NCBI GenBank assembly: GCA_042568285.1
Contig: JBHPIX010000003.1
Coordinates: 1 to 46,495 of the forward strand
Length of the DNA: 46,495 nucleotides
DNA from: Patescibacteria group bacterium
GTDB taxonomy: Bacteria; Patescibacteriota; Patescibacteriia; JAZDEU01
Reading direction: 5' to 3'
Of the stretch, positions 11,067 through 24,319 are shown piece by piece. The notes beneath the pieces were generated by a model. That model was given only the letters and a program-made list of their open reading frames with translations, had not been told where the DNA came from and ran no database searches. The stretch's first letter is position 1, and each line of letters starts with the position of its first letter. The translations under genes were made by a program, and so were the position numbers.

Positions 11067-12686
11067 TTAAAATTTAAAATTTGATATTGTATATATATCC
11101 CCAGCTCCCATCAACAACACTACATCGTTCTTTCTAATATTCTCTAAAATTATTTTGCGACACTTGGATAAATTACTGGCATATATAACCTTATTTGTCA
11201 TTCCGCCTGCCCCCTCCGATTCGGCGGGCAAGCGCCGATTTGGAGGGAGCTTGCCAAGGAATCTCTTGTCATCCCGCGCTTGATGCGTTTTTGTCATCCC
11301 GTGCTTGACACGGGATCCAGCACTATCCAATTCTAGATTCCCGCTTCCGCGGGAATGACATGTCAATAACTTTTTTCTATTTTCAGGAAACTTCCTCTCC
11401 CTTATAGCTTCTACCAATTCCTTACTGCTCACACGATCTTTTATATCCTCTCTACCCTCAACATGATAAACTTCTGACAAAATCACTAAATCAGCTTGAT
11501 CAAAACTTTCTACAAATTCATTAAAAAGCATTTTTGTCCTATTCCACGAATGCGACTGAAAAACCGCTACAATCCGTCGCTTTGGATAAAATTCTTTCGC
11601 GGCTTTTATTGTTTGTTTTATTGCGGTAGGATGATGAGCGTAATCTGAAACAATTATAGCGCCTTTATAATTTCCCACAATTTCAAATCTTCGCCATATT
11701 CCCTTGAACTCCCCTATCGCCTTTTGAATTTTTTTAAATTCAGCGTCTTCAGATAAAGCTGTTGCAATTGCCGCTAAAGCATTGTAAACATTAAATTTCC
11801 CAGGAATTTTTAATTTTATTTCTCCAATTTTTTTATTTTTAAAAATTAAATCAAAAATTTGACATTTTTTTTGAATTTTTAAATTTTTTGCGATTAAATT
11901 AGCTTTTTTTTCTATTCCGTAACTAATCTTCTTTCCATTATAAGTTTTAACTATTTCAGTTATATTTTTATCATCATTATTAAAAATCAACACTCCATTA
12001 TTTTGCGACACTTGACTAATATACTTTTTAAATGTTCTTTTTATATGATCTAAATTTTTATAATAATCTAAATGATCAGCTTCAATATTGGTTAAAACAA
12101 TTGTCTCTGCTTTTAACTTCAACATCGCTTCCCTATACTCGCACGCCTCCACCACAAACAATCCTTCTTTTTTTAGCTCCCCCATTCGTGTAGATTCGTT
12201 ATTAAATTCGTGCTCGCCCGCCGTATCGGCGGGTTGATTCGTGTCCCCCCACTTGCTTCCAACTATTACAGTGGGGTCAAGCCCAGCTTTTTCCAAAATC
12301 CATCCGAGCATCGCGGTTGTAGTTGACTTTCCATTTGTTCCAGAAACAGCGATTGTTCTCATTTCCCTGCTTAATATTCCAAGCAACTGTGGATAACTTA
12401 CCACTTTTATACCCAATTTCTGACTTTTTATTCTTTCCACATTATCTTCTGGCACAGCATTTGAATAAATCGCTAAATCCAGATCGGCATGAACATTTTC
12501 TGCTTTATGCCCAATATAAATTTTGGCGCCTTTCTTTTTTACCTCTTTTACAATTTCTGAATCAAAAGCGTCAGAGCCGCTCACCTGTTTCCCCATCGCC
12601 AGCATTAACTTAGCAATAGCGCTCATACCAATACCGCCTATTCCTATAAAATGTATTTTTTTTATTTTTGATAAATCCATTGACAT
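11067..12686 (-). CDS. murC: UDP-N-acetylmuramate--L-alanine ligase
   Basis: IHFIGIGGIGMSAIAKLM..GSD and VSGTNGKSTTTAM. At 539 aa it is lengthened by two repeat-derived insertions. Confidence 0.9.
   Translation of the reverse strand: MSMDLSKIKKIHFIGIGGIGMSAIAKLMLAMGKQVSGSDAFDSEIVKEVKKKGAKIYIGHKAENVHADLDLAIYSNAVPEDNVERIKSQKLGIKVVSYPQLLGILSREMRTIAVSGTNGKSTTTAMLGWILEKAGLDPTVIVGSKWGDTNQPADTAGEHEFNNESTRMGELKKEGLFVVEACEYREAMLKLKAETIVLTNIEADHLDYYKNLDHIKRTFKKYISQVSQNNGVLIFNNDDKNITEIVKTYNGKKISYGIEKKANLIAKNLKIQKKCQIFDLIFKNKKIGEIKLKIPGKFNVYNALAAIATALSEDAEFKKIQKAIGEFKGIWRRFEIVGNYKGAIIVSDYAHHPTAIKQTIKAAKEFYPKRRIVAVFQSHSWNRTKMLFNEFVESFDQADLVILSEVYHVEGREDIKDRVSSKELVEAIRERKFPENRKKLLTCHSRGSGNLELDSAGSRVKHGMTKTHQARDDKRFLGKLPPNRRLPAESEGAGGMTNKVIYASNLSKCRKIILENIRKNDVVLLMGAGDIYTISNFKF
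11197..11359. repeat. In-frame composite repeat insertion (about 56 codons) in murC
   Basis: Family A units plus a ccgattcggcggg hairpin, translated as TCHSRGSGNLELDSAGSRVKHGMTKTHQARDDKRFLGKLPPNRRLPAESEGAGGMT. Confidence 0.85.
12183..12250. repeat. Second in-frame repeat insertion in murC
   Basis: cattcgtgtagattcgttattaaattcgtgctcgcccgccgtatcggcgggttgattcgtgtcccc, translated as GDTNQPADTAGEHEFNNESTRM. Confidence 0.75.
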
Positions 12687-12816
12687 TTTTTTAAAATAGT
12701 TATAAAATAGTTATATAAAAAGTTCTCGGCCAGGAGTCTCGCTCTATATTAAGAGTTTCGCTCCACATCGGCGGAGGATTTTTTATTATCCAGCGACGAA
12801 AAAAAATCAATACCCT

Positions 12817-13572: not shown

Positions 13573-13763
13573 AAAAATTTAAGTGGTAAATTTATGTAAT
13601 GACAAATTTTATTTATTTGTCATCCCGCAAATCGTAGCAACGATTATGCGGGATCTATTTTTATTTTAATACTGGATTCCGTGTCAAGCACGGAATGACA
13701 AAAGTAAATTTTATTGCATTTTTATACAGCTAAAAATAAATTTTACATTTTGAACTTTGCATT

Positions 13764-14332: not shown

Positions 14333-15727
14333 CTATTTACAAACCAACACCTCCAAACTCTCCCTCCCGCACTTCTCCCAACTAAATTTTTGTGCCTGCT
14401 CTAATCCACCCTTCACCATCGCACATCTTAATTTTTCATCACTTAATAGCTTCAATATACCGTCAGCAATCTCTTTTGGCTCATTAGGATTTACAAACAG
14501 CGCAACGTCAGAAGCCACCTCTCGCAAAGCTGGAATATCCGAAGCTAAAACTGGAACGCCACAAGCCATTGCTTCTAATACAGGTATTCCAAATCCTTCG
14601 TAAAAACTAAGAAAAGTGAACAACTCCGCGCCTGCTAATAAATACGGCAAATCTTCCTGATCTGTCCACCCTAATTCAATTATATCATTTTCAAGCCCTT
14701 TCTCCTTAATAATTTTTTTAACTTTTTCATATCCATATCCCCGCCTGCCTGCTAAAACTAATTTAATTCTATTGACAAATTCTTGTGATATGCTATACTG
14801 TATTTGTGTATCAAACAGTGAAACCTCATCCGTGTTTCGCGGACCAACTAAAACATCTTCACATTCAGTGGGGATGTTTTTATTTTTGGCATCTTCAATT
14901 TTTATGTTATAATAATTTATGTGGCGGTGCGGAGAGTAAAGCGCCTCGGAGGCGCCGCTGTTTGATACACAGACGGTCTGCTTTACAGCGGATGGGGTTC
15001 GACTCCCCTTCTCTCCGCCGCTTTCAGAAAACACTTTCTTATCGGAAGTGTTTTTTGATCTCTTTAACAACCCAAACGCTTCCACCAGCCCCTTAATATT
15101 CTTCTTCTCTTCCAATCTGCCAATGTAAAAAATGTACGGACTATCTATTTTATACTTATCTAAAACCTGCTTAACTTTATTTTTTTCCAGCTGGATATTA
15201 TATTTTTTATCATCATATCCATTATAAACAACTTTTAATTTGTCAGATGAGACTTTAAACAAATCAATTATCTCATTTTTTGTAAATTCAGAAATAACAA
15301 TAATTTTTTTAGCATGTTTTAATGAATACCTGACTGTCCATTTATGATACAAATATGCAGGCAATGAATATAATTTTTTAAATCTTTCAAATCCTACGTC
15401 ATGCCATGTTACCACTGTATTTCTTGCGTAAATCAATGGAATAGAATGGGCTGGTATAAATAAAACATCTGGCTGATTAAAAAGCATTTCTAATGATAAT
15501 CTTCCTTGTGTCCAAAGATACTTAAATGGCCATTTTAAAATTTTGTTCTCCCAATTATCTGGCAGTTTCGCCAAGTCGCCAGACAATGGCTTTTTAGAAT
15601 ACAAAATAATTTTATGTTCAGAATTTTTAGTAATTTTTTTTAATTCTTCTATCAAAAAAAAAGAATACCACTCCGTGCCTGTCTTATTCAGTTTATCAGC
15701 TCTTGAAGCATCTATTCCTATTGTCAT
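14333..15727 (-). CDS. GT4-family glycosyltransferase carrying a 95-codon insertion
   Basis: C-terminal domain reads FLSFYEGFGIPVLEAMACGVPVLASDIPALREV. Residues about 224-319 are encoded by the reverse complement of the RNA module at 14772-15056. Confidence 0.8.
   Translation of the reverse strand: MTIGIDASRADKLNKTGTEWYSFFLIEELKKITKNSEHKIILYSKKPLSGDLAKLPDNWENKILKWPFKYLWTQGRLSLEMLFNQPDVLFIPAHSIPLIYARNTVVTWHDVGFERFKKLYSLPAYLYHKWTVRYSLKHAKKIIVISEFTKNEIIDLFKVSSDKLKVVYNGYDDKKYNIQLEKNKVKQVLDKYKIDSPYIFYIGRLEEKKNIKGLVEAFGLLKRSKNTSDKKVFSESGGEKGSRTPSAVKQTVCVSNSGASEALYSPHRHINYYNIKIEDAKNKNIPTECEDVLVGPRNTDEVSLFDTQIQYSISQEFVNRIKLVLAGRRGYGYEKVKKIIKEKGLENDIIELGWTDQEDLPYLLAGAELFTFLSFYEGFGIPVLEAMACGVPVLASDIPALREVASDVALFVNPNEPKEIADGILKLLSDEKLRCAMVKGGLEQAQKFSWEKCGRESLEVLVCK
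14805..14887 (+). ncRNA. Seed RNA A1 of RNA module copy 1
   Basis: Promoter TTGACA 14772-14777, 16 nt, TATACT 14794-14799. The 5' end TGTGTATCAAACAG (14805-14818) is the reverse complement of 14958-14971 in B1. Terminator is an 11-bp stem AACATCTTCAC/GTGGGGATGTT plus a T-run (14852-14887). Confidence 0.55.
14921..15056 (+). ncRNA. tRNA-like RNA B1 of RNA module copy 1
   Basis: Extended -10 TGtTATAAT at 14905-14913. Closing stem GCGGAGAG/CTCTCCGC (14929-14936 / 15011-15018) can extend by 3 bp after a 2-nt bulge. GC hairpin GCGCC-TCGGA-GGCGC. 7-bp arm CCGCTGT/ACAGCGG. T-arm GGGG-TTCGACT-CCCC at 14994-15008. Terminator AAACACTT/AAGTGTTT plus T-run at 15029-15056. Confidence 0.6.
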
Positions 15728-15802
15728 AAAATGTCATCCCGCACTTGATGCGGGATCTATTTTCTGGATTCCGCATCAAGTGCGGAATGACAAAATAAAT
15801 AA

Positions 15803-16415: not shown

Positions 16416-17657
16416 TTACTCCCCCAATAAAATCTTAATAGCCTCATCCATCTGCGGATCTATGTCGTTATTTACATTCTCAGCTGTAAATTCAATTTCC
16501 ATATCAGGGATAATTCCTTTTTCGCTAATGCAATTTCCATTAGGCGTAAGCCACTTAGCAACTGTCAATTTCACAGATGAACCTCCATCAAATTCAGATA
16601 AACTTTGAACAGACCCTTTACCAAAAGTAGTTGTCCCAATTAAAGTTGCCTTATTATAATCCTGTAAAGCGCCAGCAACAATTTCAGACCCGGAAGCGCT
16701 ACCACCATTTATTAAAACAACTGTTTTAAAATCTTTAAGCCGAGCTCTGCCAACAGCATTATGATCGCTTTGCTTATCATCAGAATAATATTCCACAACA
16801 ACAGGTCCCTCTTCTATCCATGAGCTAGCCACCTCTACTGCAGCATCTAAATATCCACCAGGATTTCCTCGTAAATCTAGAATTATACCAGAAGGATTTT
16901 CTTTCATAATATCTTTTACAGCTTCAGCAAATTTGCTTTTTGTATCAGTATTAAAATGTAATATCCTTATGTAAGCTGTGCCATCTTCTTTAAATTCCCA
17001 ACGAACACTGTCAAATTTAATGGCATCCCTTATAATATTTATATCAAACAATTCATCTCTTCCTTTTCTAGATATAAGCAAAACTACTTCTGTTCCTTTT
17101 TCTCCCCTTATTTTGCTTACCGCTTCATCTGTATACATTCCATAAGTATCTTCTCCATCAATGGCAAAAATTTCATCCCCTGCCTTTAACCCAGATTTTT
17201 CAGCTGGAGTATTAGGAAGAGGCGAAATTACTGTCAAACGATCATTTTTCATTCCTATTTCAGCTCCAATACCCTGAAACTCGCCAGACAATTCATCAGT
17301 AAATTCTTTTGATATTACAGGTCTAAAAAAAACAGAATAAGGATCCTTTAATGACGCAACCATTCCTTCCAACGCTCCATACAATAATTCTTCCTCATTG
17401 ATTGGTTTATTTACATAATCTTTTTTTAATAAATCCCAAACATCCCAAAATAAAGAAAAATCTATATTTTCATTAAGACTAAAAGGGGATGTCCTGTCTT
17501 TAACAATAACTTTCTTTGTACTTGTTCCATTTACAGAAGATACATTAGAATTAAACACAACCTCTTTCGTGCTTCCAATGTAATAGCCTAATGATAAACT
17601 AATTATCATTATTAGAAAAACTGTTAATACATTTAATATTTTTTGTTTTTTAGTCAT
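16416..17657 (-). CDS. S41 family carboxy-terminal processing peptidase with a PDZ domain
   Basis: N-terminal TM segment. PDZ-like GIGAEIGMKNDRLTVISPLPNTPAEKSGLKAGDEI. DLRGNPGG and GGSASGSEIVAGAL motifs. Confidence 0.85.
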   Translation of the reverse strand: MTKKQKILNVLTVFLIMIISLSLGYYIGSTKEVVFNSNVSSVNGTSTKKVIVKDRTSPFSLNENIDFSLFWDVWDLLKKDYVNKPINEEELLYGALEGMVASLKDPYSVFFRPVISKEFTDELSGEFQGIGAEIGMKNDRLTVISPLPNTPAEKSGLKAGDEIFAIDGEDTYGMYTDEAVSKIRGEKGTEVVLLISRKGRDELFDINIIRDAIKFDSVRWEFKEDGTAYIRILHFNTDTKSKFAEAVKDIMKENPSGIILDLRGNPGGYLDAAVEVASSWIEEGPVVVEYYSDDKQSDHNAVGRARLKDFKTVVLINGGSASGSEIVAGALQDYNKATLIGTTTFGKGSVQSLSEFDGGSSVKLTVAKWLTPNGNCISEKGIIPDMEIEFTAENVNNDIDPQMDEAIKILLGE

Positions 17658-19739: not shown

Positions 19740-19928
19740 AAGAATATATTTAATTTAGATATATTAAAACTATTTTAGAATTGTTATCCCAAAATTGACA
19801 TACTTTTGTCATCCCGTGCTTGACACGGGATCCACTCTCTAATACTGGATTCCCGCTTTCGCGGGAATGACATAAATGAAAACTCAATTTGATTTCATAT
19901 AAATATATATTACCACATCTTACTCTAC

Positions 19929-24141: not shown

Positions 24142-24319
24142 TTGACATAATAGCTTATTATGCTATTATTAATAATAATATGAATATATCTCAAACCAAA
24201 ACCAATATGTTAGTGGTCGTGGAAGTCGTAGTATCAAACACGATCGGTTTTGGTTTAGAGCAAACATAAAAACATAAAAACAAACAAAACCAAATCCGAT
24301 CGCAAAGATCGGTTTTTTT
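24142..24319 (+). promoter_or_regulatory. Valine-rich leader-peptide attenuator
   Basis: TTGACA 24142-24147, 16 nt, TATTAT 24164-24169. Leader ORF 24180-24269 encodes MNISQTKTNMLVVVEVVVSNTIGFGLEQT. Segment 1 (24192-24203) pairs with segment 2 (24246-24257). Segment 2 extended (24241-24256) pairs with segment 3 (24287-24302) at 15 of 16 positions. Terminator CCGATC-gcaaa-GATCGG plus T7 at 24296-24319. Confidence 0.7.

Follow-up and report, generated by a model that had tools for sequence, protein, structure and literature searches.

We suggest that a glycosyltransferase family 4 (GT4) gene of a Patescibacteria group bacterium carries, on its opposite strand and in a permissive loop, a cassette of two small RNA genes, A1 and B1, belonging to a small lineage-specific family in which the A RNA would mask the B RNA (probability about 0.6). 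The gene lies on contig JBHPIX010000003.1 of assembly GCA_042568285.1, of which positions 1-46,495 of the forward strand, 46,495 nucleotides (nt) in all, were analysed (the window). Two further A/B pairs, copies 2 and 3, lie elsewhere in the window. The insertion of a lineage-specific two-RNA-gene cassette in a permissive loop of a selected gene is well supported. Its working through cognate A:B pairing that masks the B anticodon arm is plausible, judging from sequence complementarity, and the functional part of the proposal is a computational one drawn from a single contig.

Cassette anatomy in the GT4 gene

Copy 1 consists of two promoter-to-terminator units (A1 and B1) on the plus strand, at 14772-15056, with the following parts.

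14333..15727, minus strand: GT4 open reading frame (ORF), 464 amino acids (aa), open across the whole cassette
14774..15055: lineage-specific insert, 282 nt = 94 codons (residues 225-318), in place of 27 nt = 9 codons
14772..14799, plus strand: A1 promoter, TTGACA, 16 nt, TGcTATACT, with 11/12 consensus matches
14805..14818, plus strand: A1 5' seed TGTGTATCAAACAG, fully complementary to the B1 anticodon arm
14837..14852, plus strand: motif common to the A RNAs, TCGCGGACC..CTAAAA, recognised by eye from the A1, A2 and A3 sequences
14850..14887, plus strand: A1 intrinsic terminator, 13-bp stem, then a T run
14886..14913, plus strand: B1 promoter, TTGGCA, 16 nt, TGtTATAAT
14931..15019, plus strand: B1 allo-tRNA-like RNA, 89 nt, ARAGORN call
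14958..14971, plus strand: A1 seed target in B1, covering the anticodon-stem 5' strand, the loop and 3 nt of the 3' strand
14994-15008, plus strand: B1 T-arm GGGGTTCGACTCCCC
15024..15058, plus strand: B1 intrinsic terminator, 15-bp stem, then a T run

A1 is a predicted small RNA (sRNA) of about 80 nt, and its first 14 nt are the seed. Elsewhere in the window the 14-nt TGTGTATCAAACAG was found only as its reverse complement, at 14958-14971, and with mismatches allowed (83%) the A1:B1 complementarity spans 23 nt (14805-14827 with 14949-14971). Both promoters are of the same near-consensus type as those of the host genes in the window. A first-pass annotation, made earlier from the DNA letters, had listed the A1 and B1 promoters, seed, target, B1 closing stem, T-arm and terminators, and all of them were found where it placed them; the ORF list bears out its further claim that the minus-strand GT4 ORF passes through the module without a stop.

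Empty sites and borders of the insertion

The GT4 protein contains the Pfam domains Glycos_transf_1 (E=6e-36) and Glyco_transf_4 (E=2e-13). We detected 6,467 homologues at E <= 1e-10 among 8,000 scored candidates. The best 120 of these are mostly about 365-415 aa long, typically about 375; none has the insert segment, and the few that reach about 450 aa do so through inserts elsewhere in the protein. The closest homologue among the matches listed, P0001 (379 aa; 84% identity in the best local alignment, 79% in the full alignment), is encoded in the same gene order as in the window: S41 peptidase, 130-aa gene, GT4, DAGK, two small genes, Mur ligase.

DNA and protein alignments place 94 codons (14774-15055) of the window against 9 codons (ARIGTRINA) in P0001, P0002 and P0003. 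The codons on either side, Ser (15056-15058) and Asn (14771-14773), are conserved. An exact 95-codon in-frame insertion had been proposed; it is in frame, but the alignments with empty-site orthologues show a replacement of 9 codons by 94, that is, of 27 nt by 282 nt, with a net gain of 85 codons (255 nt). The borders lie within 2-3 nt of the A1 -35 box and of the B1 terminator end. The syntenic closest orthologue (L001, 84% identity) has no such insert, nor do L002, L003 and L005. The insert is also absent from about 80 GTDB Patescibacteria GT4 orthologues, in which the loop has 2-13 residues with three exceptions. In these three (L006, L007, L013) the same loop has 37-67 residues and contains in-frame perfect palindromes and GC-rich hairpins, which makes it a recurrent landing place for small structured DNA. 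The palindrome-bearing loops are at 8578-8780 in L007, 10663-10775 in L006 and 4498-4652 in L013, with GACCAAAACTATCATACTATAGAGTATGATAGTTTTGGTC as an example, and two of them are from Uhrbacteria.

The alignment of GT4 with its orthologues, a check that the first-pass annotation had proposed, thus gave empty sites and defined boundaries, and GT4 enzymes do normally have a short connector at this place (9 codons in P0001-P0003, 2-13 residues in most orthologues). The idea of a discrete insertable unit is supported by the empty sites in relatives, from the tight borders and from the fact that copies 2 and 3 are missing from relatives as well. Among the 5.8 billion proteins searched we found no homologue of the 94-aa inserted peptide, including no homologous protein segment free of RNA features.

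Other types of insert were considered and rejected: an intein, since the junctions lack Cys/Ser/Thr and His-Asn and there are no intein blocks (judged by eye from the translated insert, with no dedicated test); a self-splicing intron, since there is no Rfam intron match; and retro-mobility of a transcript, since the untranscribed -35 box forms part of the insert.

Open frame, selection and structure of GT4

The insert is stop-free in the GT4 frame in only 78 of 20,000 dinucleotide shuffles (0.39%), and block-wise shuffles gave the same result. Divisibility of the length by three has a chance of 1/3, which brings the joint chance with the open frame to about 0.13%. The intergenic copies 2 and 3 have 1-6 stops in every minus-strand frame; the open frame is thus a property of copy 1 and not of the module.

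Against L001, the ratio of nonsynonymous to synonymous substitution rates (dN/dS) amounts to 0.10 in the N part (codons 1-223) and to 0.17 in the C part (codons 320-464), with similar values against L002. Neither half has frameshifts, and the conserved EX7E region is intact. That the module has been kept translatable on the opposite strand is supported by this purifying selection on both sides and by the 0.4% chance of a stop-free frame. Module hairpins were not scored as terminators on the GT4-sense strand.

Structure modelling of the insert, likewise suggested earlier, was performed with AlphaFold2. The model of the 464-aa GT4 has a confident GT-B fold (predicted TM-score 0.75) that matches MshA, BshA and WaaG, and it leaves residues 225-312 as a disordered loop (predicted local distance difference test about 21), which joins helix 211-223 to strand 322-326 in the C-terminal Rossmann domain. 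According to the model, the enzyme seems simply to bear the cassette as an additional floppy loop.

In-frame inserts of small elements were also detected in the PGK and Dus genes of the same genome, and translatability is therefore a filter imposed by host-gene selection rather than built into the module. Two segments of PGK (minus strand), one of 26 aa (33185-33262) and one of 56 aa (32558-32725), are in-frame inserts relative to L091 and L092; they are translated from palindromic repeats (e.g., VIPCLTRNP, RRNDKK), and PGK is 442 aa long against 354 aa in the syntenic L091. Dus (dihydrouridine synthase, minus strand) has, compared with the same two loci, a 34-aa in-frame insert of GC-rich palindromes (38062-38163) and a repeat-derived C-terminal extension (CHPALDAGS..., 37468-37521). 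The GT4 case is the same kind of event under the same selection filter, with a very different passenger.

B1 is an allo-tRNA-like RNA

ARAGORN labels 14931-15019 as tRNA-Ile(GAT), a label that rests on the anticodon only. The arms of B1 are as follows.

14931-38 / 15009-16: acceptor
14941-46 / 14950-55: D stem
14962-68: anticodon loop, with GAT at 14964-66
14977-81 / 14988-92: variable arm
15017: discriminator G73

No Rfam match was obtained at gathering score over the whole window. At permissive E-values the relevant matches were only tRNA-Sec for B1 and tmRNA tRNA-like ends for B2 and B3. The best model for B1, tRNA-Sec (RF01852), aligns end-to-end with 40.9 bits (E=7e-7; gathering score 47). 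At minimum free energy B1 folds into a cloverleaf of five arms (z = -3.05). Parsed as 8/4, it has 11 of 12 pairs, with 7 of 8 in the acceptor GGAGAGUA/UUCUCUCC, where a U.U mismatch occurs, and all 4 in the T stem GGGG/CCCC; the 7/5 parse has 10 of 12, so the advantage of the 8/4 parse is a single pair. The D stem is GCGCCU/AGGCGC, the variable arm UCUGC/GCGGA, and the 6-bp anticodon stem contains a bulged A.

In allo-tRNAs, which are tRNA-Sec-like, the 12-bp acceptor branch is divided 8/4 or 9/3 and not 7/5 (Mukai et al. 2017, PMC5389517). B1 shows the 8/4 branch, Sec-like D-arm, 6-bp anticodon stem, long variable arm, Sec-model score, non-UCA anticodon and G73. On these sequence and folding features, B1 is an allo-tRNA-like, tRNA-Sec/Ser-type RNA, a point unrecognised in the first-pass annotation. 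A canonical tRNA-Ile(GAU) was rejected because of the 89-nt length, long variable arm, G73, the score below Rfam gathering and tRNA-Sec as the best clan member; tRNA-Sec itself was rejected because the anticodon is GAU and not UCA and 40.9 bits is below 47.

B1 resembles class II tRNA-Ser in its T-arm, acceptor 3' strand, G73 and CC (26 nt), in its 5' GGAGAG start and in the long variable arm. It differs from it in the GAU anticodon, the tRNA-Sec-type D-arm, the CCG 3' end and the mismatches 7:66 and 49:65 of the 7/5 parse. The 26 nt from the T-arm to G73-CC are identical to tRNA-Ser of Erwinia phage IT22, which was the sole useful result of the plasmid/phage BLAST. A metagenome scan with the 3' 21 nt of B1 detected five soil contigs, three of them (L083, L086, L087) allo-tRNA-like: in the fold of L083 the acceptor branch is divided 9/3, and a UAU anticodon loop is present in L086 and L087. 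A Ser-type tRNA reading AUU/AUC would probably be harmful in a 33% GC genome.

Three A/B pairs with cognate complementarity

Copies 2 and 3, both intergenic and on the plus strand, have the following parts.

33911..34125, plus strand: copy 2, order B2-A2
33914-19: B2 -10 box
33926-33991: B2 mini-tRNA-like RNA, with its T-arm at 33964-78
34019-46: A2 promoter
34057-67: A2 seed, predicted to pair with B2 33951-61
34093-34118: A2 terminator
43104..43346, plus strand: copy 3, order A3-B3
43104-31: A3 promoter
43140-58: A3 seed, predicted to pair with B3 43260-79
43171-96: A3 terminator
43217-22: B3 -10 box
43231-43310: B3 tRNA-like RNA, with its T-arm at 43287-43301

Perfect complements are 14 nt for A1:B1, 11 nt for A2:B2 and 10 + 9 nt for A3:B3. 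The cofolding free-energy gain (ddG) of the three cognate pairs is -7.3, -11.5 and -16.5 kcal/mol, whereas non-cognate pairs give 0 to -3.6; this measure replaced full-length duplexfold, which did not discriminate pairs. The chance that all three T-arm elements have a perfect inverted match of 10-14 nt between their internal region and an adjacent sRNA-like unit is about 2e-4, an estimate from the repeat background density of the window. Other A-seed targets in the window are scattered 9-mers only.

Seeds and targets are unrelated in sequence between copies, and each is complementary to its own partner; the copies have in common only the promoter, the T-arm and short motifs. The first-pass term "the same RNA module" therefore holds for architecture and motifs and not for sequence. 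The A RNAs have a YCGRACY..CUAAA motif directly before the terminator, which appears roughly or partly complementary to the B T-loop (GGUUCG), most clearly in copy 3 (20 nt at 80%). The acceptor branch of B3 is of 8/4 type, and its 6-bp anticodon-like stem is closed by the loop CUUGGCA; B2 consists of an acceptor/T minihelix and a 24-nt internal segment. All three copies are antisense to local genes. The A:B pairing itself seems to be the conserved feature.

The spacer from RuvX to the HypA-like gene, which holds copy 2, is 232 nt here against 63 nt in L091 and 110 nt in L090, and copy 2 is absent from this spacer in both loci. No copy 3-like unit was detected downstream of dnaK in L088, L090, L091 and L092. 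The search for further A/B pairs covered about 1.5 Mb of related loci, about 1.4 Mb by a motif-plus-complement scan (82 loci and the window) and the rest by the T-arm motif only, and gave no pair beyond the three of the window; ARAGORN found ordinary tRNAs only on the scanned related loci.

At 33905-33941, the mechanically called 91-aa ORF of the HypA-like gene begins 12 codons too early, and relatives start at MHDIHLANQ; the start codon thus corrected directly borders the B2 promoter, which does not overlap the gene. About 540 bp including copy 3 are bracketed by a 23-nt inverted repeat (42995-43017 and 43513-43535; 91% complementary), possibly the two ends of a composite element, and GC-rich direct repeats (TCCGCCTCGGCT...) also lie between its arms.

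Proposed mechanism

We propose that the cassette was inserted on the strand opposite to GT4, in the loop between the first helix and the second strand of the C-terminal Rossmann domain, displacing 27 bp. The GT4 gene would still work and, because the 282 nt are in frame and stop-free, the enzyme would gain a disordered 94-residue surface loop. Selection on GT4 would remove frame-breaking versions of the insert, and copy 1 would persist as an in-frame, stop-free one; this filter also accounts for in-frame Rickettsia palindromic elements and for the PGK and Dus inserts. Pairing would be specific, each A RNA binding its own B RNA in the anticodon-arm region, and masking or destabilisation of B by A is the likeliest mechanism. 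A1 would silence B1, predicted to be a substrate of seryl-tRNA synthetase (SerRS), because of its long variable arm, G73 and Ser-type acceptor, and to read Ile codons. If A1 silences a mis-decoding B1, the cassette would be an RNA-only toxin/antitoxin-like or a tightly self-regulated pair, and addiction would help to explain its retention. Decoding or toxic mis-decoding cannot be the function of the whole family, because B2 has no anticodon arm. A broader and tentative suggestion, which we regard as possible and still rather doubtful, is that the A/B units are an undescribed class of small insertable RNA-only cassettes in a Patescibacteria lineage, each with an allo-tRNA-like RNA and a dedicated sRNA that pairs with its anticodon arm and perhaps with its T-loop as well, acting as RNA toxin/antitoxin or as a self-limiting recoding device and compact enough for in-frame nesting in essential genes.

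Several observations weigh against the proposal of a mobile cassette with A masking B. The missing anticodon arm of B2 is one of them. B1 has the U.U mismatch in the acceptor and the bulged A in the anticodon stem, and it ends in G-CCG, not CCA. The known A/B pairs are three, all on one contig; the scan of about 1.5 Mb of related loci, in part by the T-arm motif only, gave none beyond these, viral contigs scanned with the B promoter/leader pattern and with the B1 3' half gave nothing relevant, and no convincing antisense partner was found near the soil allo-tRNA-like loci. Target-site duplications or terminal repeats were not found at the GT4 junctions, nor were recombinase, transposase or reverse transcriptase genes within the window. 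The exact 464-aa protein has no entry in the public protein collection, suggesting that the gene caller of the source did not report one gene; exact look-ups of the window proteins gave no record.

Alternative explanations

None of the alternatives, an inert relic, an inverton, a dead gene or an assembly chimera, fits as well as the A/B cassette. The strongest is that copy 1 is an inert relic, a tRNA-Ser-like or allo-tRNA pseudogene with flanking junk in a tolerant loop and with no functional expression, the A/B complementarity being left over from a local inverted duplication or template switch. We consider it a minority explanation that deserves attention. The mismatched B1 without CCA and the stripped-down minihelix of B2 would suit a decayed gene, many allo-tRNAs are disrupted and probably not active in translation (Mukai et al., PMC5389517), and this genome is rich in small in-frame repeat inserts. 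However, cognate complementarity has been retained in three copies with unrelated seeds and targets. Both units have near-consensus promoters and clean terminators, and the A RNAs have a common motif. The A blocks, moreover, are not a simple reverse complement of B, since the order of the blocks is swapped in copy 3.

The inverted repeats of 10-19 nt could instead be recombination sites of an inverton, flipping of which would aim the promoter at the downstream minus-strand genes (the C-terminal part of GT4, HypA-like/PGK, DUF3467). In 3 of 3 copies a promoter does lie between the repeat arms and faces away from the minus-strand genes. We did not find a common inverted-repeat consensus with an invertase: the arm sequences of one copy bear no relation to those of the others and thus reveal no single site for an invertase, and the window has no recombinase gene. 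Inversion in copy 1 would break the GT4 frame, and the tRNA-like fold, the terminators and the conserved A motif would be left unexplained, making this alternative very improbable.

We think equally little of a dead GT4 gene with a frame open over the insert by chance. The product without a public entry and the strong convergent promoters and hairpins within the gene, which should hamper expression, speak for it, but the joint chance of about 0.13% for frame and length, the dN/dS of 0.10-0.17 without frameshifts in both halves, the intact EX7E region and the hairpins not scored as terminators on the GT4-sense strand speak against it. An assembly chimera or misjoin that put the tRNA-like region within GT4 is the least probable of all: the contig is from a metagenome assembly and the B1 3' half is identical to sequences of unrelated organisms, but two frame-preserving junctions and host-type promoters in the insert make a misjoin very unlikely, and two further copies of the same architecture lie elsewhere on the contig.

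Relation to known systems

Rickettsia palindromic elements (RPE) are reportedly selfish DNA located in frame within protein-coding genes, as described by Ogata et al. in 2000. RPE are discussed in PMC1779305 and PMC10969869. The GT4 insert is like them in being a lineage-specific segment of about 100-300 bp in a conserved housekeeping protein, in frame and stop-free, forming a surface loop of a selected host gene, and the classic repeat-derived cases, PGK and Dus, are on the same contig. In contrast to RPE, which are multi-copy, near-identical palindromes without genes of their own, the GT4 insert is unique in sequence, has two full RNA genes on the opposite strand and replaces 27 bp of host sequence. 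It shares the in-frame location with RPE and miniature inverted-repeat transposable elements (MITE), but it is not a near-identical multi-copy palindrome with terminal inverted repeats and target-site duplication.

RNA-RNA toxin-antitoxin systems include type I and type VIII systems, such as SdsR/RyeA and CreT/CreA. The A/B cassettes resemble them as two adjacent small RNA genes with predicted seed pairing that is cognate-specific across paralogues, found as scattered lineage-specific modules. They differ from them in having no toxin ORF, in the tRNA-like nature of the proposed toxin and in gene arrangement, since the two genes follow each other on one strand and neither overlap nor converge.

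B1 resembles allo-tRNAs in the long D stem, 6-bp anticodon stem, long variable arm, G73 and non-Ser anticodon, and in the high score, below threshold, on the tRNA-Sec model; the B1 3' half is that of the soil allo-tRNA-like sequences. Allo-tRNA genes lie near toxin-antitoxin systems or transposon-related genes and are often disrupted, many being probably unused in translation; this published link to toxin-antitoxin systems, mobile elements and disrupted copies fits B1 (PMC5389517). The reported hosts are Clostridia, Proteobacteria and Acidobacteria (PMC5389517), whereas B1 is from Patescibacteria (candidate phyla radiation, CPR), and GAU is not among the predominant allo-tRNA anticodons. B1 is also located within a protein-coding gene and has a dedicated antisense sRNA, which is not described in PMC5389517.

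In-frame selfish DNA and allo-tRNAs are thus both already known; the combination, the Patescibacteria host and the dedicated antisense partner are new. If our proposal is true, a small-genome CPR bacterium tolerates an RNA gene pair placed backwards in an intact, selected enzyme gene, and selfish DNA in proteins extends from simple palindromes to functional-looking RNA cassettes. It would also place an allo-tRNA-like gene in Patescibacteria, and a cognate antisense RNA masking the anticodon would be the first candidate restraint on potentially mis-decoding tRNAs. For annotation, pipelines that mask tRNA-like genes ahead of ORF calling may drop or split such host genes.

Other features of the contig

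Small palindromic MITE-like repeats are present over the contig, with 17 copies of GTCATTCC and the pattern GTCATTCC...GGAATGAC. Examples are at 19782-19898, 13599-13724, 11267-11379, 15736-15756 and 45728-45821, the one at 11267-11379 being within the Mur ligase ORF. These repeats give weak Rfam matches to FtrB and WsnRNA46.

An antisense promoter-hairpin-terminator unit (12680-12785, plus strand) lies between the Mur ligase and 136-aa genes, a junction of 4 nt in L001, and no complementary partner for it was detected within the window. The region 16599-16721 (plus strand), antisense in the S41 peptidase gene, matches Rickettsia sRNA47 in Rfam with 48 bits (E=2e-9, below gathering); the match probably reflects conserved coding sequence rather than an sRNA.

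Strong promoters followed by short leader ORFs and terminators were detected at 24142-24312 and 24944-25120 (plus strand), upstream of LeuA/CimA-like genes. The leader ORFs are rich in Val (MNISQTKTNMLVVVEVVVSN...) and Ile (MNISQGTFIISIIIGAI...), and the units resemble leader-peptide attenuators of the classical kind, here in a CPR genome. A GTATCAAACA string near 24230, considered as a further A/B module, was rejected as part of the Val-rich attenuator.

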